NCBI GenBank assembly: GCA_016190055.1
Contig: JACPRH010000005.1
Coordinates: 35,233-99,232, forward strand
Direction: 5' to 3'
Source of the DNA: Nitrososphaerota archaeon
GTDB lineage: Archaea; Thermoproteota; Nitrososphaeria; Nitrososphaerales; JACPRH01
DNA length: 64,000 nt
In this document: positions 13,132 through 46,408 of the stretch, piece by piece
How positions within the stretch are numbered: position 1 is the first letter of the stretch
How the letters are laid out: every line of letters begins with the position of its first letter
The notes under the pieces: generated by a model
What the model was told of the DNA's origin: nothing
Seen by the model: only the letters and a program-made list of their open reading frames with translations
Databases searched by the model: none
Program-made: the position numbers and the translations under genes

Positions 13132-13144
13132 GGTTTACTAGATC

Positions 13145-24684: not shown

Positions 24685-25788
24685 ATGCCTGAAGTCAGAG
24701 TCGAATCCCTGAAGAAGAGCTTCGGCAGCGAGCTTGTGATAGATAATGTTACATTCACTGCTCACGACGGTATGTTCACCACAATACTAGGACCCAGCGG
24801 CTCAGGTAAAACCACCGTCCTAAGATGCATCGCGGGACTTGAAGAGCCTGACGAAGGAGAAATCTGGATCGGAGAAAACCTAGTGTTCTCCTCAACAGAG
24901 AAGGTGTCGGTGCCGCCTGAGAACAGAGGCATCGGCATGGTGTTCCAGTCATACGCAATCTGGCCGCACATGACCGTCTTCGACAACGTAGCTTACCCGC
25001 TTCAAGTCAGAAACATGCCGAAGAACGAAATTGAGAAACGGGTGAAGGCCAGTCTTGAACTCGTGGGCCTTCAAGGACTGGAGATGAGACCCGCACCCAA
25101 CCTCAGCGGAGGACAGCAGCAGCGAGTCGCACTGGCTCGAGCACTCGTCTATGAACCGAAGGTTCTCCTCCTCGACGAGCCGCTGAGTAACCTCGACAAC
25201 AGGCTGAGAGAGCGAATGAGAACTGAGCTGAAGGAGCTTCAACGAACAATCAAGGTCACCACCATCTATGTGACCCACGACCGGCTTGAGGCAATGGCTC
25301 TGAGCGACGAGGTCGCCTTGATGAGAAGAGGGCGGATTGCGGCTACCGGTAAACCGGATGATCTCTACAACAACCCACCGAACAGGTTCGTCGCCGGTTT
25401 CCTCTGCCGAATGAACATCTTCCTAGGAAAACAGACTGACAACACTAGGAAAGACCTGACGCAGATAGATACGACAATAGGATCTCTCTACTGCAAAGTT
25501 CCTGAAGCATTGAAGGGAGAAAGCGAAGTCATGGTGAGCATCCGGCGGAATGAAATCAGCATCGCCAGAGAAAAAGCATCAGGAGAAAACGTACTGACTG
25601 GAGTAGTGAAGAACAGGCTATTCGAAGGCGACTACGTCGAATACCACGTGGAGGTCGGAAAAGACATCGTGAAAGTTAGAGACGGTGGACCACAAACTAC
25701 CCTAGAGAAGAATGAGAAGGTCTACCTAAGCCTCCCGCCCGAAAACTGCTATGTGATCGAGAAGGCAGAAGCACTAGCAGTTGAGTAA
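24685..25788 (+). CDS. ABC transporter ATP-binding protein (FbpC/PotA-like, C-terminal TOBE-like domain)
   Basis: Walker A GPSGSGKTT, signature LSGGQQQRVALARAL, Walker B LLLDEPLS. The ~120 aa C-terminal extension is typical of the Fe3+/polyamine/sugar importer class. Confidence 0.9.
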   Translation: MPEVRVESLKKSFGSELVIDNVTFTAHDGMFTTILGPSGSGKTTVLRCIAGLEEPDEGEIWIGENLVFSSTEKVSVPPENRGIGMVFQSYAIWPHMTVFDNVAYPLQVRNMPKNEIEKRVKASLELVGLQGLEMRPAPNLSGGQQQRVALARALVYEPKVLLLDEPLSNLDNRLRERMRTELKELQRTIKVTTIYVTHDRLEAMALSDEVALMRRGRIAATGKPDDLYNNPPNRFVAGFLCRMNIFLGKQTDNTRKDLTQIDTTIGSLYCKVPEALKGESEVMVSIRRNEISIAREKASGENVLTGVVKNRLFEGDYVEYHVEVGKDIVKVRDGGPQTTLEKNEKVYLSLPPENCYVIEKAEALAVE

Positions 25789-25819
25789 ACAGGTAAAAAA
25801 AGCCAGCCAAGTTGCTTGC

Positions 25820-26704
25820 TTACTTAGGCATCGGATGACGCGAGAGTCGTTTACGTAGATTCATCAGCGCATCGATATTAGAGTGAATCGCCTTCCTGTG
25901 CTCGAAGAGGAGCTCACGTATAACCCAGCCCTCCTCAAGCAGCTCAAGAGAATCGTCAATTCGGTGAAGCGCAACCTTTAGCGCGACAATGCTCTTAGCC
26001 AAAGCTCGGTCGGTAATCCGCTGCTGCTTCTCTAGATCCGAGTAGGAGTATGGGATGCTGTCTGTAAAGGCGTCGAACTCAGGTAGATTTCCCCGATGAA
26101 TCATCTTAACCATGTCGCGGACGTCGCTTCGTGAGAGACTCTCGCCGACAGCCCTCATCCCGAGCTCAATCTGCTGGTTTTCATCGTCAAGTGAGAGAAG
26201 CTCCTCCCCAACACTCGGACTGATGTTTCGCCTCGCAATCTCAGCCCGAATCTCCTTCGGCAGTGAAAGGAGCCTCAAACGTTTGCTCACATAGACTTGG
26301 CTCTTACCTATCTGCCTCGCTAGCTCGCTTACCCCGCCCCAACCATAATCCTCCACATAACGTCTAAAGGCCTCAGCCTCCTCAACCGGGTTCAGCATGT
26401 TCCGCTGAACATTCTCGACCAGCGAGACCTCGAAAGCCTCCTTATCATCAAGCTCCACTATATGACAGGGAATCTTAATCCAGCCTAGCCTGCGACACGC
26501 CTCGAAACGCCTATTACCCGCAACAACCTCATAACCCTCCTCAACCGGGCGGACCACGATAGGCTGAAGAAGCCCAACCTTCGAGATTGACGCCATCAAC
26601 TCATCTAGGTCGCCGAGATCGCTTCTGAGACTCCGCTGAGCAGGATGAGTCTTCCGCATCTTCACCTCATCGAGAAAACCTGCGAGAGACGGGCCGTCCA
26701 TCAT
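25820..26704 (-). CDS. ParB/Spo0J-like protein (ParB N-terminal domain + HTH)
   Basis: GLLQPIVVRP...GYEVVAGNRRFEACRRLGW (GxRR box). HTH: ARQIGKSQVYVSKRLRLLSLP. The ~120 aa C-terminal region is of unknown type. Confidence 0.85.
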   Translation of the reverse strand: MMDGPSLAGFLDEVKMRKTHPAQRSLRSDLGDLDELMASISKVGLLQPIVVRPVEEGYEVVAGNRRFEACRRLGWIKIPCHIVELDDKEAFEVSLVENVQRNMLNPVEEAEAFRRYVEDYGWGGVSELARQIGKSQVYVSKRLRLLSLPKEIRAEIARRNISPSVGEELLSLDDENQQIELGMRAVGESLSRSDVRDMVKMIHRGNLPEFDAFTDSIPYSYSDLEKQQRITDRALAKSIVALKVALHRIDDSLELLEEGWVIRELLFEHRKAIHSNIDALMNLRKRLSRHPMPK

Positions 26705-26775
26705 AACAGTCAGAAAATCCCCGCAGAGTTATACTTTACTTTAATCCCCGAAAATCCCTGAAAGCATGAAGCCAA

Positions 26776-28482
26776 TTAGGGGGTCACCTTAAACATGAAC
26801 CTTCTACGCGAGACAAGGCTGACTATGATTATAGCAGCCCATAGAGCAAAGGTTAGCAAGATAATCGCAGCTATCGCCTGTTCAATATGTCCGCTGGACC
26901 ACACCCGGAAGAGGGTGGCTGAAATCACCTCGTTACCAGGAGTAAGCAGCAGAATTGCCGCGCCGATTTCTCTGAACGTAATCATAGCTATGTAGGCCCA
27001 GCCGCCTAGTAGAGCAGGCCTAAGCAACACAAGTGTGACCCTCCTGATCGTGTAGAGCGTCGAGGCGCCAGACACTCTTGAGGCGTCTTCAAGATCATGA
27101 TGAATCTGAAGAAGCGGTTCAGAGGTGAAACGCACACCGTGAGCCACATATTTGATAACATACGCGAGTACGAACGCCCAGATTGTTCCATATATCCCAA
27201 TTGGGAGACTGATGAAAGTCCAGAGCAGCCCGACACCGAGCACAAGCCCAGGGAAAGCGACCGGTAGCATAGCGAAAACCTCTAGGATCCCGCGGCCTTT
27301 GACACGACTCTTCTGGGAATAGTAGACGATGAAGACAGCGGCTAATACGGCGATGAAGGCTGAGATACTGGAGACTATGATGCTGTTGACCGCGCTGCTT
27401 GGGAGCTGGGAGTACGAGGTGAGATCAAGGTAGTTGGTGAGACTCAGGTTATCAAAGAGGGTCAGCGGATGCCAGTACGTTTGTAGAGAGGCGATTATGA
27501 GGGTAAAGTATGGGAGGATAACCCCCACGAAGAGATATAGAAGAAGAATAGCTAAGCCAAGGTATCGCCATTTCCCAAGCTTCATAATTCTAGGTGAATA
27601 CCCGCGCCCAGTGATAACGGCGAACCTCTCTGCGCGACGTGTCGCCCTCCGGTAAAGGTAGACGAAAAAGAGTGTGATTACGAACATGATGACAGATTGC
27701 GCGGTCGCTAATCCATAGTTTGGAGGGTTATCATAGAGTGCTGAGATGGTGATTACCGACATGTAGACATCTATATTTCCTGGGATTCCGATAATGGCTG
27801 GAATCTCAAATGATCCGAAGGCGATGATGAAAGAGAGTAAGAAGAGGGAGAGCATTGCGGGGCCCACAAGCGGGAGCGTAACTCGAAATAGCACTGCACG
27901 GACACCTCGGCCTGATATTCGCGCCGCCTCTTCTAGTGAAGGATCAAGGGAGACCATTGCGGATCTCACCCCGACGAAAGCCAAAGGCACCAAGGCGAGA
28001 CCCATCACCCAAATCATTCCTCCGAGGGAGTAAATGTTGAACGGAGGACTGGGAAAACCCAAGAACTGCGTAAAGAAAAGGTTGATCAACCCGGTTCTCG
28101 GAGTCAGCAGATAAACCCAAGCGAGCGATTCGGCGAGCGTCGGAATGACTAGTGCAAAGAAAGGAATGTAGGTGAATATTCGCGCTAACGGCGTATCGGT
28201 GCGTGAAGTTATGAACGCGATAACGGTCGCGATACTTGTCGCTAGAAAAGCGGAGCCCAGAGCAAAAACCACGCTGTTCAGGAGAAGACCGAGACTCCGG
28301 GCTTCACTGAACGTTGCAACATAATTGTCAAGCGTCAGGTGACCCGGCTCACCCGGATTTGAACTCCAAAGGCTTCCGAAGAAGAGCGCTACAGTAGGCA
28401 TTGCTATCAGCACACACATACTGACAATAACCGCCGGAATCAGCAACCGCGAAAGGCTTTTCGAAGCCAAGAGCGCCCTCAA
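26776..28482 (-). CDS. ABC transporter permease, fused two-module type (FbpB/ThiP-like)
   Basis: About 12 TM helices. Two EAA loops (EEAARISGRGVRAVLFRVTLPL and EDASRVSGASTLYTIRRVTLVL). Confidence 0.9.
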   Translation of the reverse strand: MRALLASKSLSRLLIPAVIVSMCVLIAMPTVALFFGSLWSSNPGEPGHLTLDNYVATFSEARSLGLLLNSVVFALGSAFLATSIATVIAFITSRTDTPLARIFTYIPFFALVIPTLAESLAWVYLLTPRTGLINLFFTQFLGFPSPPFNIYSLGGMIWVMGLALVPLAFVGVRSAMVSLDPSLEEAARISGRGVRAVLFRVTLPLVGPAMLSLFLLSFIIAFGSFEIPAIIGIPGNIDVYMSVITISALYDNPPNYGLATAQSVIMFVITLFFVYLYRRATRRAERFAVITGRGYSPRIMKLGKWRYLGLAILLLYLFVGVILPYFTLIIASLQTYWHPLTLFDNLSLTNYLDLTSYSQLPSSAVNSIIVSSISAFIAVLAAVFIVYYSQKSRVKGRGILEVFAMLPVAFPGLVLGVGLLWTFISLPIGIYGTIWAFVLAYVIKYVAHGVRFTSEPLLQIHHDLEDASRVSGASTLYTIRRVTLVLLRPALLGGWAYIAMITFREIGAAILLLTPGNEVISATLFRVWSSGHIEQAIAAIILLTFALWAAIIIVSLVSRRRFMFKVTP

Positions 28483-28599
28483 CCATCTAGCTGCGTAACA
28501 TAAAAGCAGTTTTTCACAGAATCCTGAATAAAGAAAGAATAGGAAGAAAAGATCAGAGCGGACGCTAAGGGTTAACTAGATAAAAAAATATGCGCCGGC

Positions 28600-28627
28600 G
28601 AATAACTTACCTTGAAGTAAGTTATTC
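28600..28627 (-). promoter_or_regulatory. Intercistronic stem-loop (11-bp perfect stem, 6-nt loop) right after the SBP stop codon
   Basis: GAATAACTTAC-cttgaa-GTAAGTTATTC read directly. It abuts the SBP stop (28628-28630) and precedes the permease start (28482). Confidence 0.6.
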
Positions 28628-29782
28628 TTAAGGCTGACTGGTGAAGAGCTTTGTGAAGTAACTCTTGTAAGTTGCGCTATTCTTGACCACGTCGTCGTTC
28701 GGGAAGATTTTTAGATCGTCTGGAGTCTTGCCCGGTAGCACCGTCTGGAGTGTGTATTTTGCAGTGATGTCTTGGCGGGCTGCTATCCTTACCTCGCTGT
28801 TCCCGACCATAGTCTGGCCGTCCTTAGAGAGTATCCAGTCCATGAAGAGTCTCGCGGCGACTGGGTGTGTAGCGTTAGTCACTACGCCCACGGGGAGTAG
28901 GCTTGTCAGCACAGGTAGCCCATCAATTGTGAAGGCGGCTACAGGGGCGCCTTTGTTCTTGGTTCCGAGAAAGTCATGCATATAGACTGATAGGGCGATG
29001 CTTTCTTCGCCGCTTGCAACTGGGTTGATTACATCTTCAAAGGCTGCTTTACGGATAGGCTGGACATTCGTGGCTAGTCGTTCCATGAAGGAGGTCCACT
29101 CTTGTTCACCCATGTATTGCTTTAAGGTGGCGAAGTACTGTGTTCCGACAGTTCCTAGTGTAAGATCGTGGATCGTGTCCTTGCCCTTCCACTTGGGATC
29201 AACAAGTTGATCTACAGTATGTGGAACATCTGAGTCCGGCACTAGAGCGGTGTTACGGACCTGAAGCATTGGGAGAAGCATTGCGGCGACCCAGTGACCT
29301 GTTGAATCTTTGAAGATCGCGGGGTAGGCTGCGGCCTCCGGCGAGTTGTACTGTTCTAGAAGACCCTTGTTTTGCAGGCTAAGCTGAAGAGAAAGACTAA
29401 TCATGACTACGTCAGCAGTCGGTTTGTTAGCTGCCCGCTCAGTCGTTATCTTTGTGAAGATGTTACCAGGCGTATCTGTAAAGAACTGGATACGGGTGCC
29501 CGGGTACTTTTCTTCGAAGACTTTCTGCCACGGAGCGAAGGTCTGTTGATCAACAGTCGTGTAGACAACAAGCGTGTCTTCGGGCTTAGGAGCAGATGTT
29601 GTTGAGGTGCTGGAGGTGGTAGTAGTTGATGTGCTACTGGTGGTGGTTGAGGAGGTGGGGGTGGTTGTGGATGGGTTTAGTGATATGTAGGCTGCGGCTG
29701 CGATGGCGACGATTACTACGATGGCTATTCCTATGTAGGCGTTGCGGTTAACCAATATATTTTCACTACTATGCGAAGACAA
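28628..29782 (-). CDS. ABC transporter substrate-binding protein (family-1 SBP, Fe3+/thiamine-like), membrane-anchored with Thr/Ser linker
   Basis: N-terminal TM (YIGIAIVVIVAIAAAAYISL), linker TTTPTSSTTTSSTSTTTTSSTSTTS, then an SBP fold (LVVYTTVDQ...). Heads the operon with the permease. Confidence 0.85.
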   Translation of the reverse strand: MSSHSSENILVNRNAYIGIAIVVIVAIAAAAYISLNPSTTTPTSSTTTSSTSTTTTSSTSTTSAPKPEDTLVVYTTVDQQTFAPWQKVFEEKYPGTRIQFFTDTPGNIFTKITTERAANKPTADVVMISLSLQLSLQNKGLLEQYNSPEAAAYPAIFKDSTGHWVAAMLLPMLQVRNTALVPDSDVPHTVDQLVDPKWKGKDTIHDLTLGTVGTQYFATLKQYMGEQEWTSFMERLATNVQPIRKAAFEDVINPVASGEESIALSVYMHDFLGTKNKGAPVAAFTIDGLPVLTSLLPVGVVTNATHPVAARLFMDWILSKDGQTMVGNSEVRIAARQDITAKYTLQTVLPGKTPDDLKIFPNDDVVKNSATYKSYFTKLFTSQP

Positions 29783-29863
29783 TAAAGATAACTAATAAAG
29801 ATTTTTCATTCAGACGAAGAGTTGATATCATGTTGCCACCGCCATTAAACTATATATAGAGAG

Positions 29864-31039
29864 TTGGGTTTCATTTTATCCGATTTGAGACTATCGGTTC
29901 CTAGCCGGTTCGAAATGGAGCTGCTGGAGAAGTTTGGGCGCTTTAACAAGAAGTACGGCAGCATCGACAAGATATACGGTTCGCTGCCGAGCTCGATTAT
30001 TGGGCACGGCAGAATCGCAGGGCTAGTGAAGAAGTTCGGAGACTTTGACATGGATCATGTCAGAGAGTTCACGGAGGAAGCGCATAGAATCGGGATTAGA
30101 GTGAACTATCTCGCAAACACACTCTGCCTAGGAGAGGTAGGTTACACTAACGATGGGCGAGAGAAAATTCTCAGCTACCTTGGAGAAGTGTATGAGACGG
30201 GTGCAGACATCATAACCGTCGCCTCACCCTATATTCACCGGCTCGTCAAAACCGAGTATCCTAGCTTGAAGACAGAGATCTCGGTTTACGCTGAAATCGA
30301 CACCGCCCAGAAGTTCAAGAGATGGGAAGAGCTCGGCGCAGACATCATCAACCTGCCTTCGCGAGCCAACCGTGACTTTGAGCTCCTCGAAAGCATCGCT
30401 AAATCCCGCAAAACCGAAGTTGAACTCCTCGTAAACGAATCCTGCCTCTTCCACTGCCCATACTCACTTTACCACCACACAGTAAGCTCTCACCGATCCC
30501 GCATCCCCGACGACGGCGTAGACTACTGCATGCTGGAATGCGTGCAGGATCGGCTAGAAGACCCCTCTGAGCTACTCAAGGCAGCTTGGATCAGACCTGA
30601 AGACATCGCGTACTACGAGAAAACCTACGGTATCGACCGGTACAAGATCCAGGGAAGACAGATGCCGGTTCAATGGATTGAAAAGACAGTCGAAGCCTAC
30701 TCAACCAGAAAGTACAGCGGAAACCTGCTTGACCTAATCAGCCCAACCTACCCAGACTGGTCAGCCCGCTCAGCAGCCAACCAGCAGACTCTGCCAGGAT
30801 TCCAGCCTCAAGACCTAAAGAGACCAGACGTATACATCGACAATAGCCAGCTCGATAGGTTCTTCACAACTCTAGTTAAGAAAGGGGGATGCGCCCCGAC
30901 AAAACCATGCGACACCTGCAGATACTGCAACCAAGCATCGAAGAATCTGGTTCAAATCAGGAACCAGGAACAGTTCAAAACCTATGCGGCTGCGACAAAA
31001 GCGCTTTTTGAACACGCAATAACTGCATCCACTGCCTAG
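29864..31039 (+). CDS. Peptidase-U32-family protein (UbiU/UbiV/RlhA-like putative Fe-S hydroxylase family)
   Basis: TIM-barrel-like U32 pattern: FTEEAHRIGIRVNYLANT...ETGADIITVASPYIHRLVKTEYPSLKTEISVYAEID...LGADIINLPSRANRDFELL...EVELLVNESCLFHCPYS. Four-Cys group: ESC, FHC, DYCMLEC. The TTG start is uncertain, because a TATA-like ctatatata lies only ~10 nt upstream. Confidence 0.7.
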   Translation: MGFILSDLRLSVPSRFEMELLEKFGRFNKKYGSIDKIYGSLPSSIIGHGRIAGLVKKFGDFDMDHVREFTEEAHRIGIRVNYLANTLCLGEVGYTNDGREKILSYLGEVYETGADIITVASPYIHRLVKTEYPSLKTEISVYAEIDTAQKFKRWEELGADIINLPSRANRDFELLESIAKSRKTEVELLVNESCLFHCPYSLYHHTVSSHRSRIPDDGVDYCMLECVQDRLEDPSELLKAAWIRPEDIAYYEKTYGIDRYKIQGRQMPVQWIEKTVEAYSTRKYSGNLLDLISPTYPDWSARSAANQQTLPGFQPQDLKRPDVYIDNSQLDRFFTTLVKKGGCAPTKPCDTCRYCNQASKNLVQIRNQEQFKTYAAATKALFEHAITASTA

Positions 31040-31092
31040 TCAAGACAGGCACGTCGATCTGACCCAGGTAAATCCAGCAAAGTAATGCTTTA

Positions 31093-31515
31093 ATGGTCAT
31101 CGCTGCAGGCTCGGTGAAGCATAAATTGACTCAGTTCTGGTCTAAAGAATTCTTTGAGCAAGCTGGTGAGCGGCTTAATCGTGACGATGAACTCACCAAG
31201 GTTTTCGCCGGTATGAACACTACCATACTCGCAGTAAGTAGTGACAAAGATGAGGCGTTCCTGATCCAGGTGGAAAACGGGAAGATCAGTTCAAGAGAGG
31301 CGCGCCCAGAGGATAAGGCGGAGTTCAAGTTCACATCACTCTATGAAAAATGGGAGAAGATAGCTAAGGGAGAGATGAGAGTCCAAAGCGAAGTAGTCAA
31401 AGGCGGCATCAAGTTCACCGGCTCGATGCCTAAAATGCTGCTCTACCTCGGCAAAGTAGTCCGAATGGAGAAGAAAATTCTCAACATCATCAAATCGATG
31501 AACCTTGAGTACTAA
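31093..31515 (+). CDS. SCP2 (sterol carrier protein 2-like) lipid-binding domain protein
   Basis: 140 aa. SCP2 pattern: ...TILAVSSDKDEAFLIQVENGKI...AEFKFTSLYEKWEKIAKGEMRVQSEVVKGGIKFTGSMPKMLLYLGK. Confidence 0.75.
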   Translation: MVIAAGSVKHKLTQFWSKEFFEQAGERLNRDDELTKVFAGMNTTILAVSSDKDEAFLIQVENGKISSREARPEDKAEFKFTSLYEKWEKIAKGEMRVQSEVVKGGIKFTGSMPKMLLYLGKVVRMEKKILNIIKSMNLEY

Positions 31516-31649
31516 CTGCCTCTATTCACTACTATCATCACCATCAGAGGCATTGCTACTTACATCGCTTCCATAAAATTCCGCCTCAGAAACAGAACCC
31601 CATAACCAAGACAAAATCTTAATAGTATCAGAAAAGTGAAGTTAACCGT

Positions 31650-32585
31650 ATGACCAAGCTAGTCGTATATACATCATTCTCGTTTATCCTCGACACGTTC
31701 GACATATCGCTGAGAGCGAAATACGCAGATGAACACTTTCACCTGATCACCTTCCGCGACCACCCAAAGATGGTTTACGAACGAATTAAGAAGGAAACAG
31801 AGACTGGAGAACGTACCGCCGATCTCGTGATAGGCCCGCATTGGATGATCCTGAACCTCCAACTCCAAGGTCTCCTACGACACTATGACTCACCTGAATT
31901 CGCTGCATACCCGAAGGAGTTCCACAACCCGAAGGGAGCTTGGTGCGCAATGGCACTCTCACCCGTAGGCCTCGCCTACAACACCGACTTGGTCAAGGAA
32001 GATGAGGCGCCGACGACATTAGATGGAGCGCTTGACGAGAAGTGGCGCGGAAAACTAGCCGCCCACGAAATCACCGACAACGTGGAAGGACAGATGGGAC
32101 TCACATACCTGACCGCACTCAACCGCATCATAGGCGAAAAGAAGTGGAACGAAATAGTCGGAAGGCTAGCTGATCTTAAACCGAAGACCTATATGTGCAT
32201 GCCTGAGATGGCACTAAACATTGGGTTAGGTAACAGCTACCTCGGCCTCCCCGCGACCCTGGCCTGCATTTCATACTACCTAGATATCCAAGGCCGGCCA
32301 GTCGCTCACAGAATGCCCACAGACATCCCATACATGGCGACCTTCGCACCCACAATCGCCATCGTAAAGGGCGGCGAGAACGCGGATTGGGCTGAACGAG
32401 CATTCAACTTCGCGCTCTCAGAGGATTGGCAATCCCACGTCGAGGGATTGGGCGGAAAGATTCCGACTAGACCAGGCATGGCTTCTTTAAACCCCGTTCC
32501 GGAAGATGCGAAGTATTTCCCAACCCTTGAAGATGCGAGAAACATACCGAAGTACCTTGACATCTTGAGAAGCAAGATGGCGTAA
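31650..32585 (+). CDS. Leaderless (cytoplasmic) paralog of the ABC substrate-binding protein
   Basis: Collinear similarity to the SBP at 28628-29782. For example, YDSPEFAAYPKEFHNPKGAWCAMALSPVGLAYNTDLV...LDEKWRGK aligns with YNSPEAAAYPAIFKDSTGHWVAAMLLPMLQVRNTALV...VDPKWKGK. It starts directly with the first beta-strand (KLVVYTS) and has no TM/signal or Thr-rich linker. Confidence 0.7.
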   Translation: MTKLVVYTSFSFILDTFDISLRAKYADEHFHLITFRDHPKMVYERIKKETETGERTADLVIGPHWMILNLQLQGLLRHYDSPEFAAYPKEFHNPKGAWCAMALSPVGLAYNTDLVKEDEAPTTLDGALDEKWRGKLAAHEITDNVEGQMGLTYLTALNRIIGEKKWNEIVGRLADLKPKTYMCMPEMALNIGLGNSYLGLPATLACISYYLDIQGRPVAHRMPTDIPYMATFAPTIAIVKGGENADWAERAFNFALSEDWQSHVEGLGGKIPTRPGMASLNPVPEDAKYFPTLEDARNIPKYLDILRSKMA

Positions 32586-32623
32586 GCAGCCTTCCCGAGG
32601 CGCATTCTTTCCGACTAGAAAGC

Positions 32624-32639
32624 CTAGCCGGCCGGCTGG
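32624..32639. repeat. CTAGCCGGCCGGCTGG near-palindrome between convergent genes. Short relative of the 42.9/63.0/63.4 kb repeat core.
   Basis: Read directly. Contains the 12-bp perfect palindrome AGCCGGCCGGCT. Shares the ctagccgg / cggctgg / ttagg blocks with copy C (63397-63430). Confidence 0.5.
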
Positions 32640-32695
32640 TTCTTAGGTTATTGTGTACATCTTCGCAGATGCATTGTAATAGACAGTAGTATGCT

Positions 32696-34132
32696 TTAGA
32701 CGGCGGTTACAGCGTCTTTGTATTCAACGGCTCGTTTGATGATTTCAGATTCCGTGAGGTCTTCACGCTCCAGTCCGAGCGGGTGCTCGATCTTTCCTTC
32801 GCCTAGATCGCGGCAGTAATCGTAATAGTCTTTGAAGCTGCTTCTCAGCCGCCGCATGTTGAACCGTTTCGGAAACAAGTCTATGGGTGAGCCGGGTGTT
32901 AGCCGGAGTGGGACGCATTCAAGCTGATCCTGCGGATTCTGGAACATCTGCGGGTACCGCTTCTTCATTTCAAGCGATAATTTGACAGTTTCTTGGAAGT
33001 CCTGTTCTGTTTCGAATGGGAGGCCACAGATGAACCAGAGAAAGAGCTGTGCACCGCGTGGAGAACCGACTTCCGAGATTTTCTCAACCGCCTTTGACAA
33101 CTGGTTGTTGGTGTAGAACTGCTTGTGGAAGCCTTGGCTGCAGAGCTTGTCTCTGAGCCTCTCGGAGCCGCTGTCAGGAGAGATTTGGATCTCGAAGCTC
33201 CTGAAGCTTTCGCCCACTTGGGAGATCAGCTCGTTTGATGGAAGGTTCCAAGGGAGGAAGGTGAGATCAACATCAAGCGGCTTAAGCTCAGCGAAGAGCT
33301 TCTGGAAGTAGGTTTCATCTTTGAAGGGCCCAAAGTCGAGGAAGAGGCTTTCAACCCCATTCTCACTAAGGAGGTTTGCGTCTCGGACAACATCCTCGAC
33401 GGGGCGAAATATTGAGACTCCGCGGCTGAAGATTCTGGTTGAGCCTGTTTTCGAGGTTCCGCAGAAGCAGCAGTTGTAGCTGCAGCCCTTACCCACATAT
33501 AGGTAGAACTCGCTTGATTTTGTGGATACCTTCTCAACTATTTTGCCGGACGATATCGGAGCGGAGGTGCGGACACGGGTCGTTTTGAGGTAATGATCCC
33601 ACTCATCAACCATCTCATTCATGTCTTTGTTGGCAGCGCTCAGGTTTTCAAGCGATGTCTGATGGTAGGTAATCGGCTTAGAAACAAACTCCCCGTCCTT
33701 CATGAACGAAGCATTCTCAGTACGCTCCGGATCAAGGGTGGAGACGTAGTCAAGAAGCGGCTTCTCACCATCACCTTTAACGATGAGGTCGATTGCCGAT
33801 GTGAAATCCAGTATCTGCTTGTTGAAGTAGGTGGATGTGTGGCCGCCGATTACCACCTTTGTCTCGGGGGACTCGGCTTTAACTGCCTCCGCGACCTTCA
33901 ACGCTTCATAACTGTGAATGTACCAGTGTAGACTGATGCAGGCGACCTTCGGATTAAACTGACGAATCTTCGTTCTCACCGTTTCTTCAGTGTTCTTATC
34001 CACAAGCACGGCGATTCGTGAATCATAGGCGTGTTTCCGGAGATAAGCGGACAGACTTAGCATGCCAAGGGAGATTATCCCGTACTGCTTGCCCACAGCA
34101 GGCTGGAAGAAGAGAACATCCACATCCGGCAT
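32696..34132 (-). CDS. B12-binding-domain radical SAM protein (class B rSAM)
   Basis: N-terminal cobalamin-binding Rossmann-like domain (VLFFQP...ISLGMLSLSAYLRKHAYDSRIAVLV...ACISLHW...VVIGGHTSTY). Radical SAM cluster motif CSYNCCFC (CxxxCxxC). Confidence 0.85.
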   Translation of the reverse strand: MPDVDVLFFQPAVGKQYGIISLGMLSLSAYLRKHAYDSRIAVLVDKNTEETVRTKIRQFNPKVACISLHWYIHSYEALKVAEAVKAESPETKVVIGGHTSTYFNKQILDFTSAIDLIVKGDGEKPLLDYVSTLDPERTENASFMKDGEFVSKPITYHQTSLENLSAANKDMNEMVDEWDHYLKTTRVRTSAPISSGKIVEKVSTKSSEFYLYVGKGCSYNCCFCGTSKTGSTRIFSRGVSIFRPVEDVVRDANLLSENGVESLFLDFGPFKDETYFQKLFAELKPLDVDLTFLPWNLPSNELISQVGESFRSFEIQISPDSGSERLRDKLCSQGFHKQFYTNNQLSKAVEKISEVGSPRGAQLFLWFICGLPFETEQDFQETVKLSLEMKKRYPQMFQNPQDQLECVPLRLTPGSPIDLFPKRFNMRRLRSSFKDYYDYCRDLGEGKIEHPLGLEREDLTESEIIKRAVEYKDAVTAV

Positions 34133-34240
34133 TTAGTATCTCACCACAAAAGACATTCTTCGGCTATTTTAGCACTCCGCCGCCGCAAAACCCTTTAATA
34201 ATTACGTTGGCTCTGACGAATTCACGGTACTGAATAATAG

Positions 34241-34489
34241 ATGTCGGCCTTACGAGATGCTTTCGCTGAGCTAGATGAGAAGCAGACGCTTCTAGCGATC
34301 CAGCAAATGATTGACCGTGGAGAAGATCCTAAGGAGATACTGGCTGAGGCGCGTCGAGGATTACAGATTGTCGGCGAACGGTTTGAAGCGAGGCAGTACG
34401 CGCTTATTGAGCTTGAGATGGCTGATGAGCTTTTCCGAGAATGCGTCAAAGCGGTGGAGGAGAAGACGGATCAGGGGAGGGTGGACTGA
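34241..34489 (+). CDS. Stand-alone corrinoid-protein 'cap' (B12-binding_2 helical bundle) mini-protein
   Basis: 82 aa. LRDAFAELDEKQTLLAIQQMIDRGEDPKEILAEARRGLQIVGERFEARQYALIELEMADELFRECVKAV matches the N-terminal cap of MtaC/MetH-type corrinoid domains. The ORF stops before any DxHxxG Rossmann module, and only 80 nt remain before the next gene. Confidence 0.6.
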   Translation: MSALRDAFAELDEKQTLLAIQQMIDRGEDPKEILAEARRGLQIVGERFEARQYALIELEMADELFRECVKAVEEKTDQGRVD

Positions 34490-34569
34490 ACCTGCGCCGA
34501 TTACCTAGAGAAAAGGAAAGTTGTTGTCAACAAATAACAATCGCCTAGAAGAGATGTGAGGAGCTAACA

Positions 34570-35679
34570 ATGCCTAAAAAAATTAACATGTCGAGGGAGA
34601 GACTTCGAAGAGCCGTCGAGTGCGAGACACCGGACCGTGTTCCAATCACGATTAGGCTTGAGTACGCTGCGGCGCGCTGGGCCGGGATCAGCTTCAAGGA
34701 TTTTGCGCTCGATCCTCTGAAGGCCTCTAACGCGATTGAGCAGACATACGAGAAGATGGGAGGATGGGACGCTGTGGACGCGTCTTGGACATTAGGCACC
34801 CGGTGGAGCAGGCTTGAGGCGGCTAAGGTTCAGTTCCCGGGAGTAGATTTCCCTGAGCAGCTTCCGCATAGAGTAGTTGACTATCCTGTGATGACGCCTG
34901 AGGACTACGGTTTAGCGGTTAAAGGAGGGTTGAATAGCCTAGCCACTGTTCTGCTAGACCGGCTCGGAAAGAAGATAGATAGGAGCACAAGCGAGGAGGT
35001 ATTCATATCGTTTACACCCATTTACAGACACTGGGATGAGGAGAAGGGTGTGCCGGTCTACAGGGGAGGTATGGTGAGGCTCCCGTTCGTACAGTTCTCG
35101 ATGTGGCGCACGTGGCGCGGAATGGCGCATGATCTTCTGAAGCAAGGTGACAAGGTGAAGGAGGCTTGCGATGCGGTTTTAGATGAAGCAATAACGATCG
35201 GGGAGAAGCACAGCCGCATCGTTGGCTGCAAATACATCTTCATGCCCTGTGGCCGCGCTTCAGCAACCTTCCTCTCAGAGAGACTCTTCCTAGAATACGT
35301 TTTCCCACATCTAAAGAAGATCACTGAAAAACTTGTTCAAGACGGGTTCACTCCTCGCCTACACTGCGACACAGACTGGGAGCCGTTTCTACAGTTCTTC
35401 CGTGAGCTGCCGAAAAAGAGCTGCATTCTCGAGCTGAGCCCAGCCACCAACATCAAGCGAGCCAAGGAGCTGCTTGGAGGCCACATGTGCCTGTACGGCA
35501 ATGTCCCGAGAAGCCTCCTTTCAGCAGGCTCCCCCGCTAGCGTAGAGACATACTGCAAGAAGCTAATTGATAATGTTGGGCGAGACGGATTCATCTTAGC
35601 AAATGATGATATTGTTCCATACAACGCTAGGTTCGAGAATGTTAAGATGCTCATAGACGCTGGGAAAAAATACGGGTAA
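34570..35679 (+). CDS. URO-D family protein, MtaA/CmuA-like methylcobamide methyltransferase homolog
   Basis: N-terminus RERLRRAVECETPDRVPI and C-terminus GGHMCLYGNVPRSLL...GFILANDDIVPYNARFENVKMLIDAGKKYG are typical of the family. PRLHCD is a possible Zn-ligand region. Confidence 0.8.
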   Translation: MPKKINMSRERLRRAVECETPDRVPITIRLEYAAARWAGISFKDFALDPLKASNAIEQTYEKMGGWDAVDASWTLGTRWSRLEAAKVQFPGVDFPEQLPHRVVDYPVMTPEDYGLAVKGGLNSLATVLLDRLGKKIDRSTSEEVFISFTPIYRHWDEEKGVPVYRGGMVRLPFVQFSMWRTWRGMAHDLLKQGDKVKEACDAVLDEAITIGEKHSRIVGCKYIFMPCGRASATFLSERLFLEYVFPHLKKITEKLVQDGFTPRLHCDTDWEPFLQFFRELPKKSCILELSPATNIKRAKELLGGHMCLYGNVPRSLLSAGSPASVETYCKKLIDNVGRDGFILANDDIVPYNARFENVKMLIDAGKKYG

Positions 35680-35745: not shown

Positions 35746-37605
35746 ATGACTCGACTTCTAGCGCCTTTGATAATTCTCCTAATCATATCATCCAGTATCA
35801 CGTTACTAATCGCGCCTCAAACAGCAGTAGGCCAGCAGCAGCAACAGCAACCACCGACCGCTGGCGACTGGGTTGCCACAGGTTACGATTACAAACACAC
35901 CGGGTTTAACCCTCAGACGGTGATTAACCGGGACAATGTGAAGGAGTTGGAGTTCAAATGGATTTACCAGCTCCCCTCGAACCCATACCGAAGTATTCTA
36001 CAACCGTCGCTTGGTCTTGAGACGAATCCGCTGGTCGTGAATGGAATGGTTTACTTCGCCGCATCCTACAGCAAGGTGTTTGCAGTCAACGCTTTGACTG
36101 GAAATCTAGTGTGGAGCCACGAGGTGAACGTAACCAAGGCACTTGAGAAGCCGTACATCGGTAACTTTGGAATACAACACGCGATTACATACAAGAGTGG
36201 CCTCATCTATCAGCTGGCAATAGACTGCACCCTTTACGGTCTCGACGCGGCGAACGGTCAAGTGAGGCTGCAGATCGATGACATCTGTAAAGATATACCG
36301 GGGAACAGAGGATTGTACTTCGGAGAAGAGGCGCCTACAATATATGAGAAGGACGGGCGAAGGATAGCTGTCGTACCTGTTGCAGCTGGACTCTTCTATG
36401 CACGAGGCTTCGTCGCAGCCTACGACCTCGAAACTAAGGAACTGCTGTGGCGATGGTTTGTTATTCCTCCTGGTGTAGAAGGGCCTAAGGATAACTGGGA
36501 AGGATACCAAGATGTAAGCAAAGGCAACATCAAGCCTTACCCCGGGGACTGGGGAGACAGCAGCGAAATCTGGGGAGGCTCAGCTTGGGTCTCAAGCTCC
36601 ATCGACGAGGACACCGGTCTCGTCTACACATCCACCGGTTACCCCGGCATCGGCTTGACACTTGCAGGTAATGGAGACGCCTCAAGGAGACCGGGGCCGA
36701 ACCTGTACACCAACTCGATAGTGGCGCTCGACGTGCTGACAGGCAAGATGAAGTGGTATTATCAGGTGACACCGCACGATTTAGTCCAGCACGGCTTCGG
36801 ATGGAACACGATACTCGCCAAAGTCACTATTGACGGTCAGGAGAAGAAGGTCATAGTCACCGGCAGCAAGAACGGGTACGTCTACGAGCTCGATGCGGTT
36901 ACAGGTGAGCCGGTCATACAGCCTGTGAAGGTAGGAGTTCACCTCAACGACTACAACACGAACCTAGGTAACGATGCAGACATGACGATGAACCAGCAAC
37001 CAGGAGTCACCTGCCCCGGAGGAAACGGCGGAATCGAAGCACCGGTAGCCGTCGCGCACAACACCATTTTTGCCGCAGCCCAGAACCGATGCTTTGATTG
37101 GCGACCGGTTCCGAACGCGTACAAAGGAACCGCAGTATGGGTCGCCGGCCCAGTGATGGATAGACCCCAAAACTCAACACTCTACGCCATCGACGCCACA
37201 TCAGGCAACATCAAGTGGCAGTTCAACATGCCTAACCCATACCAAGGAGCTGGCGTTATCGTCAGCGGAGGAGTCGTCTTTGCGCAGGACAGAATCGGAA
37301 CACTATACATGTTAGATGAGCAGAACGGGCAGCTTCTCAGGAGTATCTACTTCGGCGGGCTCGGCGCCGCAGGAGTATCCATCGGCCAGAATCCAAGAGG
37401 AGAAACAATGCTTTTCGTACCCTCCGGCGGAGGAGACATAATTGTACCCACGCCCGGCACACTCACAGCCTTCGCGTTACGTGAAGGATCCTCGTCCAGC
37501 GGAGGAGGAACATTCACAAACGAGGTGGTCTACATTGCGATAGCGGTTGCAATCGTAATGGGAGGAATCGCCTTGGTAAGCCTGAGAAGAAAATCAGTAA
37601 AGTAG
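35746..37605 (+). CDS. PQQ-like beta-propeller (quinoprotein dehydrogenase-like) exoprotein with N- and C-terminal membrane segments
   Basis: The N-terminal block GDWVATGYDYKHTGFNPQTVINRDNVKELEFKWIY resembles the quinoprotein dehydrogenase start (W..G.d....yspL.qIn..NV..L..aW). Repeated propeller blades follow (VNGMVYFAAS, GLIYQLAIDCTLYGLDAANG, GKMKWYY, GYVYELDAVTGE, LYAIDATSGNIKW, GTLYMLDEQNGQ). C-terminal TM plus RRKSVK tail. Confidence 0.7.
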   Translation: MTRLLAPLIILLIISSSITLLIAPQTAVGQQQQQQPPTAGDWVATGYDYKHTGFNPQTVINRDNVKELEFKWIYQLPSNPYRSILQPSLGLETNPLVVNGMVYFAASYSKVFAVNALTGNLVWSHEVNVTKALEKPYIGNFGIQHAITYKSGLIYQLAIDCTLYGLDAANGQVRLQIDDICKDIPGNRGLYFGEEAPTIYEKDGRRIAVVPVAAGLFYARGFVAAYDLETKELLWRWFVIPPGVEGPKDNWEGYQDVSKGNIKPYPGDWGDSSEIWGGSAWVSSSIDEDTGLVYTSTGYPGIGLTLAGNGDASRRPGPNLYTNSIVALDVLTGKMKWYYQVTPHDLVQHGFGWNTILAKVTIDGQEKKVIVTGSKNGYVYELDAVTGEPVIQPVKVGVHLNDYNTNLGNDADMTMNQQPGVTCPGGNGGIEAPVAVAHNTIFAAAQNRCFDWRPVPNAYKGTAVWVAGPVMDRPQNSTLYAIDATSGNIKWQFNMPNPYQGAGVIVSGGVVFAQDRIGTLYMLDEQNGQLLRSIYFGGLGAAGVSIGQNPRGETMLFVPSGGGDIIVPTPGTLTAFALREGSSSSGGGTFTNEVVYIAIAVAIVMGGIALVSLRRKSVK

Positions 37606-46398: not shown

Positions 46399-46408
46399 GC
46401 CAACAGAG

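Follow-up and report, generated by a model that had tools for sequence, protein, structure and literature searches.

A conserved gene neighbourhood of separately inherited blocks, including a B12-related gene set, in an uncultured Nitrososphaerota lineage

An 11-kb stretch (24685-35679) of the window, the 64,000-nucleotide stretch of DNA that was analysed, is a real, conserved neighbourhood of an uncultured Nitrososphaerota lineage, and its blocks are inherited separately. Block 1, which is always present, comprises a type I ABC importer of the FbpA/AfuA/PhnS class and a ParB-like gene. Block 2 is an optional gene for a U32 Fe-S protein. Block 3 is a co-inherited set encoding an SCP2-fold protein, a leaderless substrate-binding protein (SBP), a class B radical SAM enzyme (rSAM), a cap-only remnant of a corrinoid protein and a predicted substrate:corrinoid methyltransferase (MTI). 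Block 4, which is optional, consists of genes for a PQQ alcohol dehydrogenase (PQQ-ADH) and a major facilitator superfamily (MFS) transporter. Because the locus consists of several separately inherited blocks, the single import-and-modify pathway proposed in a first-pass annotation is unsupported. We tentatively favor a reading in which block 3 is a functional unit.

Gene content and modular inheritance

The features of the locus and its immediate flank are as follows.

24685..25788, + strand: ABC importer ATPase (Pfam ABC_tran E 8.6e-35, TOBE_2 E 1.5e-8)
25820..26704, - strand: ParB/Spo0J-like protein, 294 aa (Pfam ParB_N E 4.3e-21, HTH_ParB E 8.1e-20)
26776..28482, - strand: fused double permease of a type I ABC importer, 568 aa (two Pfam BPD_transp_1 stretches)
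28628..29782, - strand: membrane-anchored SBP (Pfam SBP_bac_6/1/11; N-terminal transmembrane helix, Thr/Ser-rich linker)
29783..29863, no strand: divergent SBP/U32 intergenic region, 81 bp (TATA-like ctatatatag at 29850-29859, read from the sequence)
29864..31039, + strand: U32-family Fe-S protein (Pfam PF01136, Peptidase_U32, E 3.5e-12)
31093..31515, + strand: SCP2-fold small lipid-binding protein (Pfam Alkyl_sulf_C E 3.7e-7; SCP2 23.1 bits, cut-off 21.3)
31650..32585, + strand: leaderless (cytoplasmic) SBP-fold protein (SBP_bac_6 E 1.2e-12)
32696..34132, - strand: class B (cobalamin-binding) radical SAM enzyme (B12-binding E 8.7e-13, Radical_SAM E 8.2e-11)
34133..34240, no strand: divergent rSAM/cap-only intergenic region, 108 bp (A/T-rich TATA-like elements facing both ways)
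34241..34489, + strand: cap-only corrinoid-protein remnant, 82 aa (PF02607, B12-binding_2, E 3.7e-7)
34570..35679, + strand: URO-D-superfamily methyltransferase (PF01208 E 8.1e-22)
35746..37605, + strand: exported, C-terminally anchored homologue of quinoprotein (PQQ) alcohol dehydrogenases (PF01011 E 6.8e-52)
37708..39231, - strand: MFS transporter (MFS_1 E 5.8e-47)

An open reading frame check recovered all nine genes listed by the first-pass annotation with exactly the coordinates and strands that it gave, and each scores above the Pfam gathering threshold in the family named for it; these include the ATPase, the fused permease and the Thr-linker-anchored SBP of the importer. The claim that no unrelated genes intervene does not hold, in that the 294-aa ParB_N and HTH_ParB gene lies between the ATPase and permease genes. 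Because genes lie on both strands, with at least six transcription directions, the 11-kb set is not one operon. The ATPase gene is transcribed alone, convergent with the ParB-like gene; several genes of the locus have TATA-like elements of their own, and the two divergent intergenic regions are putative promoters.

The DNA of the window belongs to the core chromosome of a Nitrososphaerota archaeon that is unclassified, and its relatives are uncultured soil and marine archaea. About 20 independent related contigs, with GC contents of 32-50%, share the locus gene order, so the arrangement is beyond chance and the set is syntenic in many relatives, as the earlier proposal required. However, housekeeping flanks (Fae/Hps, AspRS, GatC and PCMT) are also collinear, in the same order. 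Order conservation alone is therefore weak evidence, and gene order in close relatives may reflect passive retention.

The modularity of the locus is revealed by three variants. On 18 contigs besides the window (GC 32-50%, protein identities of roughly 50-84%), the genes for the leaderless SBP, the rSAM, the cap-only protein and the MTI occur in that order, preceded by the SCP2 gene wherever the contig extends that far, and these five genes are never found apart. In contrast to a single pathway, the lineage of L095 and L097-L099 lacks the U32 gene and keeps everything else, and no U32 remnant is detectable in the approximately 300-430 bp between its SCP2 and SBP genes; U32 is thus a facultative member. 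Conversely, L004 and L005 retain the importer, ParB and U32 genes and are missing those for SCP2, the leaderless SBP, the rSAM and the cap-only protein, whereas MTI homologues persist beside complete corrinoid proteins. In L170, the PQQ-ADH gene is replaced by other genes and the MFS gene is lost, and the core stays. The MFS gene is also absent in L004, and its relatives in variants A and B are 68-71% identical. The PQQ-ADH and MFS genes are therefore facultative neighbors.

Importer, U32 protein and flanking genes

The importer and the ParB-like gene are present in all variants. In relatives, the ATPase occupies the same position with 68-76% identity; its best NCBIfam matches (PotA, PhnT2 and ferric FbpC-type) all fall below their cut-offs. 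The permease aligns with PhnU2 from end to end (13-560), yet scores 136 bits against a cut-off of 593. The best solved relative of the exported SBP is an 'iron-binding protein' (7f6e, E 3.5e-17); it also matches the pyridoxal-phosphate binder 6wce (E 7e-17) and AfuA 4r72 (E 2.4e-16), and reaches 78 bits with PhnS2, for which the cut-off is 393. By these similarities, the importer is assigned to the FbpA/AfuA/P5PA/PhnS class. Among the solved or curated relatives that were found, the ligand bound or named is Fe3+, pyridoxal phosphate or 2-aminoethylphosphonate, none of them hydrophobic; this speaks against the proposal that a hydrophobic or aromatic substrate is imported. The ParB-like protein (TIGR00180 132.6 bits, cut-off 58) is encoded 71 bp downstream of the permease gene on the same strand, and occurs at the same spot in all variants with 62-74% identity. 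It was absent from the earlier gene list.

The U32 protein probably starts at the TTG at 29885, rather than at 29864, which gives 384 aa. It consists of a TIM-barrel U32 core followed by a C-terminal CX5CX2CX2C group (C343-x5-C349-x2-C352-x2-C355). The four-Cys group noted earlier is borne out across 30 homologues, in which three of the cysteines never vary and the fourth shows conservation of at least 90%; C88, C194, C198 and C226 are also conserved. Among PDB structures, the AF2 model (pLDDT 90.9) matches the U32 protein MK0906 (5d88) best. The RNA hydroxylase RlhA is a characterised member of the U32 family (PMC6747719), as is TrhP, named in NCBIfam.

Elsewhere, U32 proteins of this subfamily are encoded near B12-radical SAM genes, acyl-CoA ligases, or type III polyketide synthases (PKS) with methyltransferases. 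Among 77 loci from unrelated bacteria and Asgard archaea, 27 to 31 have a B12-rSAM gene near the U32 gene, within 3 kb in 25, and such genes are densest next to U32, at 1.03 per 10 kb, compared with approximately 0.3-0.5 beyond 3 kb. Part of this enrichment may be background, because those bacteria carry numerous B12-rSAM genes. The rSAM of the window is only distantly related to those near bacterial U32 genes (20-29% identity), and in L086 a 38%-identical homologue and a U32 gene of this subfamily are 1.5 kb apart. L170 and L171 have a second U32 paralogue, at a distance of 3-6.5 kb from a pair of corrinoid protein and MTI genes. Nine bacterial loci are type III PKS-U32-methyltransferase clusters, in which U32 fills the slot where aerobes carry an FAD oxidoreductase, as in the characterised alkylresorcinol operon (PMC10896814). 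By analogy, these contexts are consistent with O2-independent hydroxylation of phenolic lipids, and to that extent fit the earlier suggestion of such chemistry on aromatic or lipidic molecules. UbiU/UbiV with the SCP2 protein UbiT is a known precedent (PMC6747719), but the retention of SCP2 where U32 is lost makes a UbiT-like role for SCP2 beside U32 less likely.

The protein described earlier as a PQQ-like propeller does belong to the PQQ family, but is more exactly a genuine homologue of quinoprotein alcohol dehydrogenases (1kb0 E 2.7e-36; XoxF 6dam E 1.2e-27). Its presence alongside the locus argues against the label 'anaerobic', as does the aerobic or microaerophilic lifestyle of published non-ammonia-oxidising Thaumarchaeota (PMC7300363, PMC10640624), families to which the window may not belong.

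The co-inherited B12-related genes

The SCP2 gene, whose relatives are 53-70% identical, always adjoins that of the leaderless SBP. The latter protein has no leader and is a paralogue of the exported SBP of the importer (29% identity, E 2e-32), as claimed earlier, although its closest exported relatives are other proteins (36% identity). Its orthologues are 68-84% identical, which makes it the most conserved protein of the locus, and its family is narrow, with 17 representatives at E<=1e-30 among 1.84 billion.

In the rSAM, the CX3CX2C motif (C217/C221/C224) is invariant. The AF2 model (pLDDT 90.6) has a confident class B fold, most like those of MgmA, TsrM, TokK, CysS, AprD4 and OxsB, and the protein scores 153 bits with TIGR04190, for which the cut-off is 500.

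The cap-only protein is, as first described, a B12-binding_2 four-helix cap and nothing else, and stops at the point from which a full corrinoid protein would continue into its Rossmann B12-binding domain. At least 18 loci have such an ORF (82-107 aa), which shares the conserved core GLxIVGERFExKQYALIELEMAxELF and a conserved C-terminal tail. The best full corrinoid match (48% identity) is to the N-terminus of one of three such proteins in L004, and L088 has a split or degraded corrinoid protein copy. Differences by codon position (0.26/0.17/0.47) follow a purifying-selection pattern, which points to a real gene.

The methyltransferase was correctly placed in the URO-D family (PF01208), and the comparison to MtaA was imprecise. 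A single-sequence search yields CdmB (9rui, E 4e-25) as the sole solved match; as a profile, the protein matches CdmB over its full length at 6e-70, versus 1.9e-7 for MtaA, which was rejected as its identity, and approximately 1e-5 for HemE. It thus belongs to the MTI clade of CdmB/MtoB/MtvB. This clade includes methoxy-aromatic O-demethylases (PMC13222342), which would in part sustain the suggested methoxy-aromatic link, and homologues at 32-34% identity are located in MTI-CP(-MTII) operons. Neither a complete corrinoid protein nor an MTII nor a (reductive) activase is encoded in the window, contrary to a working corrinoid methyl-transfer system. The MTI is therefore without an obvious partner and may be a relic.

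Competing explanations

One explanation, which we consider rather unlikely, is that the region holds only small sub-modules, and that their order is kept merely by clade-wide collinearity. The importer would take up a polar nutrient, such as an iron or phosph(on)ate compound, U32 would act on RNA (like RlhA and TrhP) or another cell component, the cap-only and MTI genes would be a decaying O-demethylase remnant, and the role of the rSAM would be unrelated. The equally collinear housekeeping flanks, the independent variation of the blocks, the use of both strands with promoter-like elements for each gene, and the truncated corrinoid protein, with its split or degraded copy in L088, all fit this explanation. 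However, it does not account for the five block 3 genes staying together across contigs of such different GC content, for purifying selection and a conserved tail in the cap-only ORF, for U32-B12 enzyme associations in unrelated phyla, or for the strong conservation of the leaderless SBP. The original proposal of one anoxic pathway, in which a hydrophobic or aromatic compound is imported, passed to the SBP paralogue and SCP2, hydroxylated by U32 and then methylated or demethylated with B12, appears improbable. The importer adjoins in every variant, the family chemistries are as originally stated, and the paralogy of the two SBPs could imply a related ligand. Nevertheless, the importer and U32 persist in L004 without most of block 3, block 3 persists without U32, none of the ligands of the solved and curated SBP relatives that were found is hydrophobic, the leaderless SBP is closer to other exported SBPs than to its neighbor, and the PQQ dehydrogenase gives no sign of anaerobiosis.

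Two further explanations center on methyl groups. It is similarly improbable that the locus is a catabolic C1 island, in which an imported methylated compound is demethylated by the MTI, alcohols are oxidised by the PQQ dehydrogenase, a Fae/Hps fusion (21685-22875, 1.8 kb upstream) handles formaldehyde, and the rSAM and U32 are accessory. The resemblance of the PQQ-ADH to ethanol and methanol dehydrogenases, the two MTIs, three corrinoid proteins and second ABC importer of the sister variant L004, and the canonical MTI-CP-MTII operons of distant homologues favor such an island. Yet the window lacks the complete corrinoid protein, MTII and activase, L170 loses the PQQ and MFS genes while retaining the core, and the Fae/Hps fusion is a stable flank in all variants; archaeal fusions of this kind also serve pentose synthesis. 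Still more improbable is a relay in which the MTI loads methyl from a non-SAM donor, for example a methoxylated compound, onto the cobalamin of the rSAM, whose B12 domain replaces the lost Rossmann domain with the assistance of the cap-only protein. Wherever an MTI orthologue is beside the rSAM gene (the window and 18 loci), its partner is always cap-only, whereas MTI homologues without an rSAM neighbor (L004, L170, L171, L172 and L174) are always partnered by a full corrinoid protein of 211-228 aa; moreover, the rSAM gene and the cap-MTI pair diverge from the 108-bp spacer, and MTII is missing. This correlation, however, represents a single evolutionary origin, and the rSAM B12 domain has no specific similarity to the Rossmann domains of corrinoid proteins. 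Solved structures of class B enzymes have the cobalamin turned towards the rSAM active site, and SAM is what methylates it; no precedent for a relay was found in the literature searched.

The reading that we favor, as possible rather than probable, is that block 3 is a cobalamin-dependent tailoring system, that SCP2 holds its substrate, a small lipophilic molecule, and that U32 is an optional accessory. We infer the class of substrate, which might be a phenolic lipid, quinone or isoprenoid, because SCP2 always adjoins the core, U32 occurs in PKS clusters, and UbiU/UbiV-UbiT provides a precedent. The rSAM would perform radical C-H functionalisation, most likely C-methylation, and the MTI-type enzyme would shuttle methyl between a cobalamin and an O-methyl group or one like it; where present, U32 would carry out O2-independent hydroxylation on the same class of molecule. 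Some of the block 3 proteins might also interact physically. The most unusual block of the locus is the one in which a B12 radical enzyme stands together with a methyl-transfer enzyme and a B12-carrier protein that is truncated.

Organisation and variants of the locus

The best-supported view of the region is that of a modular neighbourhood, with block 3 as its proposed functional core. This block encodes an SCP2 lipid-binding protein, a leaderless substrate-binding protein (SBP'), a class B radical SAM enzyme (rSAM), a protein that comprises only a corrinoid-protein cap domain, and a substrate:corrinoid methyltransferase of the URO-D superfamily (MTI). The U32 protein is an optional accessory. 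The nine ORFs between positions 24685 and 35679, from which the first-pass annotation had proposed a candidate anaerobic import-and-tailoring pathway, have the coordinates and strands originally assigned, and each exceeds the Pfam gathering score of its named family. They do not form a single operon, because six transcription units lie on both strands, and several plus-strand genes have their own TATA-like element approximately 30 nt upstream. The units are as follows:

Unit 1, plus strand: ATPase of the ABC importer (24685-25788)
Unit 2, minus strand: exported substrate-binding protein, SBP (28628-29782); fused permease (26776-28482); ParB-like protein (25820-26704)
Unit 3, plus strand: U32 protein (29864-31039 as first annotated); SCP2 protein (31093-31515); leaderless SBP' (31650-32585)
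Unit 4, minus strand: rSAM (32696-34132)
Unit 5, plus strand: cap-only protein (34241-34489); MTI (34570-35679); PQQ protein
Unit 6, minus strand: MFS transporter

The importer genes are likewise not contiguous, because a 294-aa gene with ParB_N and HTH_ParB domains (25820-26704, minus strand) separates the ATPase from the permease. This ParB/Spo0J-like orphan lies 71 bp downstream of the permease gene on the same strand. Its position is identical in all related loci, at 62-74% identity, and no ParA is present among its annotated neighbours in the window or the related loci.

The PQQ protein had been described as a PQQ-like propeller. The propeller stands, and the protein is more exactly a true quinoprotein alcohol dehydrogenase homologue, with a PF01011 score of 177 bits and PDB matches to 1kb0 (2.7e-36), 6zcv (8e-30), and 6dam, a XoxF (1.2e-27). 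These matches place it in the class of predicted eight-bladed PQQ propellers of the ADH/MDH/XoxF type.

A fusion of formaldehyde-activating enzyme and hexulose-phosphate synthase (Fae/Hps; 21685-22875, minus strand) is the constant upstream flank in all variants of the locus. The gene at 23102-24388 (minus strand) encodes 428 aa with a hydrophobic stretch at the N-terminus and a segment rich in Thr, and its product is presumably exported. It matches no Pfam family, no related locus has a counterpart at the same position, and it is the sole clearly lineage-specific insertion beside the conserved block. Farther downstream, a run of genes at 44942-51097 (plus strand) specifies a PLP enzyme, a ThiF-family protein and two Iso_dh paralogues, with a gene for a lectin-like protein breaking the run. 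Elsewhere, the window contains genes for the thermosome, GatA/GatB, AspRS, RadA, NucS, SAM synthetase, GMP synthase and similar core functions, and scans of the window for tRNAs and Rfam families found neither. Because of this core-gene content, and because the closest homologues come from MAGs of Thaumarchaeota, Nitrososphaerota or Nitrososphaerales, the region is core chromosome of an uncultured Nitrososphaerota archaeon.

With U32, rSAM and URO-D homologues as anchors, approximately 20 related contigs were recovered (L numbers denote loci from other genomes), and these represent three variants. Variant A is found in the window, L001-L003, L007, L008, L088/L089 and L170, and has the order Fae/Hps, ATPase, ParB, permease and SBP, then U32, SCP2 and SBP', then rSAM, then cap, MTI and PQQ, and finally MFS. 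L170 has other genes in place of PQQ and MFS; there, the MTI orthologue is followed by a second pair of corrinoid protein and MTI, an AMP-ligase, other genes and a second U32 paralogue. Variant B (L095, L097-L099) has the variant A order without U32, and no U32 remnant is detectable in the gap of only 300-430 bp between SCP2 and the SBP gene. Variant C (L004, L005) retains Fae/Hps, importer, ParB and U32. Where the other variants have SCP2, SBP' and rSAM, it has two MTI homologues and three full corrinoid proteins, along with a gene of the PEP_mutase family and a second ABC importer, whose SBP is of the NMT1 type. Seven shorter contigs (L090-L094, L096, L113) contain the core in part and fit variant A or B.

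The GC content of these loci ranges from 32% to 50%, so the gene order has outlasted substantial divergence. Nevertheless, the genes may be unrelated and only passively collinear: because the housekeeping flanks of the related contigs are collinear too, conservation of order does not by itself prove functional coupling, and the pattern of gain and loss, rather than order, is the informative signal. In this pattern, SCP2, SBP', rSAM, cap and MTI co-occur (SCP2 wherever the contig extends that far). In variant C, which lacks SCP2, SBP', rSAM and the cap-only gene, MTI homologues persist and adjoin full corrinoid proteins. The importer and ParB are constant, U32 varies independently, and so do PQQ and MFS. 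The locus may also be a C1 island that includes Fae/Hps and the PQQ dehydrogenase, of which the former is present in every variant and the latter is replaced in L170. Two observations weaken the single import-and-tailor pathway: neither U32 nor the importer follows the core in its variation, and no evidence for anaerobiosis was found.

Importer, binding proteins and SCP2

As in importers of the FbpABC, AfuABC and PhnS2T2U2 types, the double permease is fused, the ATPase has a TOBE tail, and the SBP falls in the SBP_bac_6/1 class. However, the importer scores far below every equivalog cut-off (PhnS2, 78 bits versus 393; PhnU2, 136 versus 593; PhnT2, 316 versus 458; ferric ATPase, 306 versus 496), its SBP is anchored by an archaeal Thr-rich linker, and its ATPase is on the opposite strand with the ParB-like gene intervening. 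By the equivalog scores, its membership is at class level only, and it is neither PhnS2T2U2 nor FbpABC.

The exported SBP resembles an "iron-binding" protein, a pyridoxal-phosphate binder, AfuA and models of 2-aminoethylphosphonate binders about equally well. An adjacent Tyr-Tyr pair provides Fe3+ ligands in TtFbpA and VmFbpA (PMC10804667), and within the region aligned with the best solved relative, 7f6e, neither sequence has such a pair. A role in iron uptake was also considered, and this comparison speaks neither for nor against it. A hydrophobic import substrate had been proposed, but nothing about the relatives of the SBP hints at such a ligand. That the class of the SBP is wrong for hydrophobic ligands further weakens the single pathway. 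A phosphonate interpretation was considered because of the PhnS2-like matches, the PEP_mutase gene in L004 and weak PhpK matches. It was rejected: the Phn scores are all far below their cut-offs, the PhpK-type matches (approximately 30 bits) cover the B12 domain only, and the PEP_mutase family is broad.

The leaderless SBP' starts at the first beta-strand of the SBP fold, and no upstream extension of its ORF is possible. Its conservation (68-84% identity) exceeds that of every other protein of the locus. The family is small and has leaderless as well as exported members; a 42%-identical homologue lies on a contig of only 1.4 kb. The SCP2 domain is marginal (23.1 bits; cut-off, 21.3), and the SCP2 protein reaches 30.8 bits with Alkyl_sulf_C. 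Its gene is beside U32 in variant A, and is kept without U32 in L095 and L097-L099.

Cap-only protein, MTI and radical SAM enzyme

The cap-only ORF encodes 82 aa. Its orthologues, from at least 18 loci, are 100-107 aa long, and all are conserved in the C-terminal tail and strongly so in the core. Orthologues differ by 0.26, 0.17 and 0.47 at codon positions 1, 2 and 3, a signature that indicates a translated gene under purifying selection. The ORF matches PF02607 (30.7 bits), shares 33-48% identity with the cap domains of the three full corrinoid proteins in L004, and lacks the Rossmann domain with DxHxxG that would bind B12. It ends (...GRVD, stop) exactly at the start of the Rossmann strand, where full corrinoid proteins continue ...LGRVVIGTVKGDIHDLGKN, and the next gene is only 80 bp away. 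It is thus not a complete corrinoid protein of the MtaC/MtoC/CdmC type. In L088, positions 12960-13474, between U32 and SCP2, contain a cap-like stretch followed by an 84-aa B12-binding ORF. This region resembles a complete corrinoid protein that has been split or has degraded, which suggests that the ancestral locus had an intact one beside U32.

The URO-D protein had been called MtaA-like, a label that is not strictly correct. When searched alone, it matches only CdmB among solved structures (E = 4e-25), and a profile that includes its homologues matches CdmB over the full length (6e-70), compared with 1.9e-7 for MtaA and approximately 1e-5 for HemE. The MtaA/CmuA cut-offs are unmet (NF004889, 44.1 versus 244; TIGR01463, 34 versus 235; NF040654, 22.6 versus 400), as is that of the HemE model TIGR01464 (20.7 bits versus 303). 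By these sequence comparisons, the protein is nearer to the characterised MTIs than to either MtaA or HemE and falls in the MTI clade. The clade includes CdmB together with MtoB, MtvB, OdmB and VdmB, and CdmB is zinc-free (PMC13222342). Similarly, the conserved HxC...C zinc motif is absent from the window MTI.

Three-component MTI-CP-MTII systems (CP, corrinoid protein) include the Cdm chloromethane system and the Mto/Mtv/Odm O-demethylases (PMC13222342). In common with them, the window has a gene homologous to a corrinoid-protein cap domain upstream of the MTI. In contrast to them, its corrinoid protein is cut to the cap, without the B12-binding Rossmann domain; no MTII or activase is encoded nearby, and a divergent class B radical SAM gene is found instead. 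MTI homologues in L004, L170, L171, L172 and L174 are accompanied by full corrinoid proteins; those at 32-34% identity are in ordinary MTI-CP operons, and the operon in L174 also includes CobW and a Pterin_bind MTII. The His of DxHxxG, the cobalamin-ligand motif, is missing from most full-length corrinoid proteins in the clade (L004 10169-14918, L171 9317-9997), and GDIHDLGKN is found in only one of the three in L004. Each MTI orthologue with the divergent rSAM as a neighbour has a cap-only partner, and each MTI homologue without it has a full corrinoid protein. This correlation is striking, but it represents one evolutionary event. Derivation of the rSAM B12 domain from the lost Rossmann half was rejected, as the domain has no specific similarity to the Rossmann domains of corrinoid proteins.

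The rSAM matches PF02310 (48.6 bits versus 32.1) and PF04055 (42.8 versus 29.5), and the CX3CX2C motif (C217/C221/C224) is invariant. Its predicted structure (pLDDT 90.6) has MgmA, TsrM, TokK, CysS, AprD4 and OxsB as top Foldseek matches. MgmA, TsrM, TokK and CysS, all methylases, agree with the window enzyme in domain order, CX3CX2C motif and predicted fold. The N-terminal predicted B12-binding domain, cluster motif and modelled fold thus identify a class B enzyme. It is outside every curated equivalog: TIGR04190, for Ta0216-type B12 radical SAM proteins, gives 153.2 bits versus a cut-off of 500, and no mention of this model was found in the searched literature. Sequence searches against solved structures gave no match better than E = 3e-4.

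The rSAM family is narrow. Among 5.8 billion clusters, approximately 14 close homologues (66-94% identity, all thaumarchaeal) are followed by 7 at 36-41%, and beyond this distant group nothing exceeds 29% identity. Distant homologues (31-41%) do not share the block 3 module. One of them, in L086, is 1.5 kb from a U32 gene of the window's subfamily, in surroundings that include further radical SAM genes and a double-cubane-type reductase homologue. Others have as neighbours a TPP enzyme and a SPASM radical SAM enzyme, an NMT1-type SBP, or more B12 radical SAM enzymes. Class B enzymes that act on archaeal lipids include Grs, the GDGT methylases and Ted (10.1101/2025.10.20.683597). The window rSAM likewise has an archaeal host, and this host and the adjacent SCP2 gene would suit a lipid substrate.

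Block 3 could be responsible for cobalamin-dependent tailoring of a lipophilic molecule bound by SCP2, which we propose tentatively. It is unusual for a cap-only gene to stand beside an MTI and an rSAM gene; the arrangement is either a relic or a novel form of methyl relay. The genes may be the relic of an O-demethylase system; no complete corrinoid protein, MTII (Pterin_bind or MtaA type) or activase is encoded nearby in the window, and the cap-only gene itself has the signature of purifying selection. Alternatively, the cap-only protein, MTI and rSAM could constitute a split corrinoid methyl relay, which we consider improbable and whose basis is gene position only. In such a relay, the MTI would take a methyl group from a non-SAM donor, such as a methoxylated compound, and put it on the cobalamin held by the rSAM, which would then methylate the lipophilic substrate bound by SCP2. 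If true, the relay would feed a B12 radical SAM methylase while sparing SAM, and would be a fate not seen before for a corrinoid protein.

The U32 protein and its subfamily

The window protein belongs to the Peptidase U32 superfamily, according to its HMM score (PF01136, 46.5 bits versus a cut-off of 22.4) and U32 TIM-barrel fold. MK0906 (5d88), the only solved U32 protein, is found at E = 1.1e-21 in a profile search, and is the best fold match to the AF2 model (pLDDT 90.9; TM-score 0.74, normalised to the target). The canonical [4Fe-4S] motif of U32 proteins is CX6CX15CX3/4C (PMC6747719), and only its CX3C part (C194, C198) is in register. Other conserved Cys residues are C88, which is UbiV-like and far upstream, and C226, which is UbiU-like and downstream; the conserved Cys residues might fit a [4Fe-4S] site. 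Because all homologues align from residue 8, and because of the placement of a TATA-like ctatatatag at 29850-29859, the start is most likely TTG at 29885 rather than 29864. The spacing of 26-35 nt would fit a leaderless transcript.

The UbiU/UbiV/UbiT system shares with the window a U32 gene directly upstream of a small SCP2 lipid-binding gene, and a lipophilic aromatic as the implied substrate. However, the window has a single U32 gene, and therefore no heterodimer pair of the UbiU/UbiV type; the canonical motif is present only in part; and there is an additional C-terminal 4-Cys group. The SCP2 gene survives in lineages without U32, and the archaeal host has no ubiquinone pathway in view. 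The UbiU and UbiV models do not match the window protein, and TrhP gives 18.5 bits against a cut-off of 534. By equivalog-level similarity and gene number, the protein is not UbiU or UbiV.

The protein belongs to a large subfamily in which a WIRPED motif is conserved and the C-terminus carries a CX5CX2CX2C group. A search limited to one genome per species gave at least 593 confirmed matches, mostly in Dehalococcoidia, Omnitrophota, Planctomycetota and Asgard archaea. In U32 loci outside Thaumarchaeota, the window proteins detected no SCP2, SBP, cap, MTI or PQQ homologues. B12 radical SAM genes are present in 27-31 of 77 U32 loci (within 3 kb of U32 in 25 of them), and their density drops with distance from U32. 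Acyl-CoA ligases occur in 30 loci, type III PKS in 9, UbiE-like methyltransferases in 7 and other methyltransferases in 8. A recurrent architecture in Dehalococcoidia consists of a B12 radical SAM gene and an AMP-ligase, with a divergent U32 gene followed by an SDR, and is fixed in L026, L027 and L033. A second U32 paralogue, 41-43% identical to the window protein, is found in L170 (1629-11113) and L171 (5079-11098), 3-6.5 kb from a corrinoid protein and MTI pair and near genes for an AMP-ligase, an HMGL-like synthase, a PLP enzyme and SdhAB-like proteins. One genome has this cluster directly next to the main locus, and another has it on a separate contig.

The order PKS3, U32, methyltransferase recurs in MAGs of uncultured Planctomycetota, Riflebacteria, Fibrobacterota and Bdellovibrionales. 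Such loci are L043, L052, L055, L063, L074, L075, L078, L079 and L082, and their U32 gene is flanked by, or next to, the type III PKS and UbiE-like methyltransferase genes. [quoted passage not shown] UbiU and UbiV perform O2-independent hydroxylation of ubiquinone precursors (PMC6747719). Because U32 takes the oxidoreductase slot, this analogy suggests that the subfamily performs O2-independent hydroxylation of phenolic lipids, and the PKS3 clusters may be an oxygen-independent version of the alkylresorcinol pathway. The window itself has neither a PKS nor a SAM-dependent methyltransferase, and its U32 protein is linked to these clusters through subfamily membership only (29-39% identity).

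All families in the locus are already known. However, the combination of a cap-only protein, MTI, narrow class B rSAM, leaderless SBP and SCP2 beside U32 is undescribed in the searched literature, including that on U32 with SCP2 in archaea and on U32 with B12 radical SAM enzymes. Thaumarchaeota that do not oxidise ammonia abound in soils and in the dark ocean, yet what is known of their metabolism comes from genomes only; to our knowledge, none has been cultured. The conserved module, centred on a B12 radical SAM enzyme of a narrow and lineage-specific family, suggests undescribed cobalamin-dependent chemistry in these archaea, which would bear on their vitamin B12 dependence and possibly on lipid or quinone biomarkers. 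Also, because the U32 subfamily associates with B12 enzymes, acyl-CoA ligases and type III PKS across phyla, it may be an oxygen-independent counterpart of the flavin hydroxylases in phenolic-lipid pathways. The locus thus provides two testable leads: the chemistry of block 3, and the U32 subfamily as a candidate anaerobic phenolic-lipid hydroxylase.
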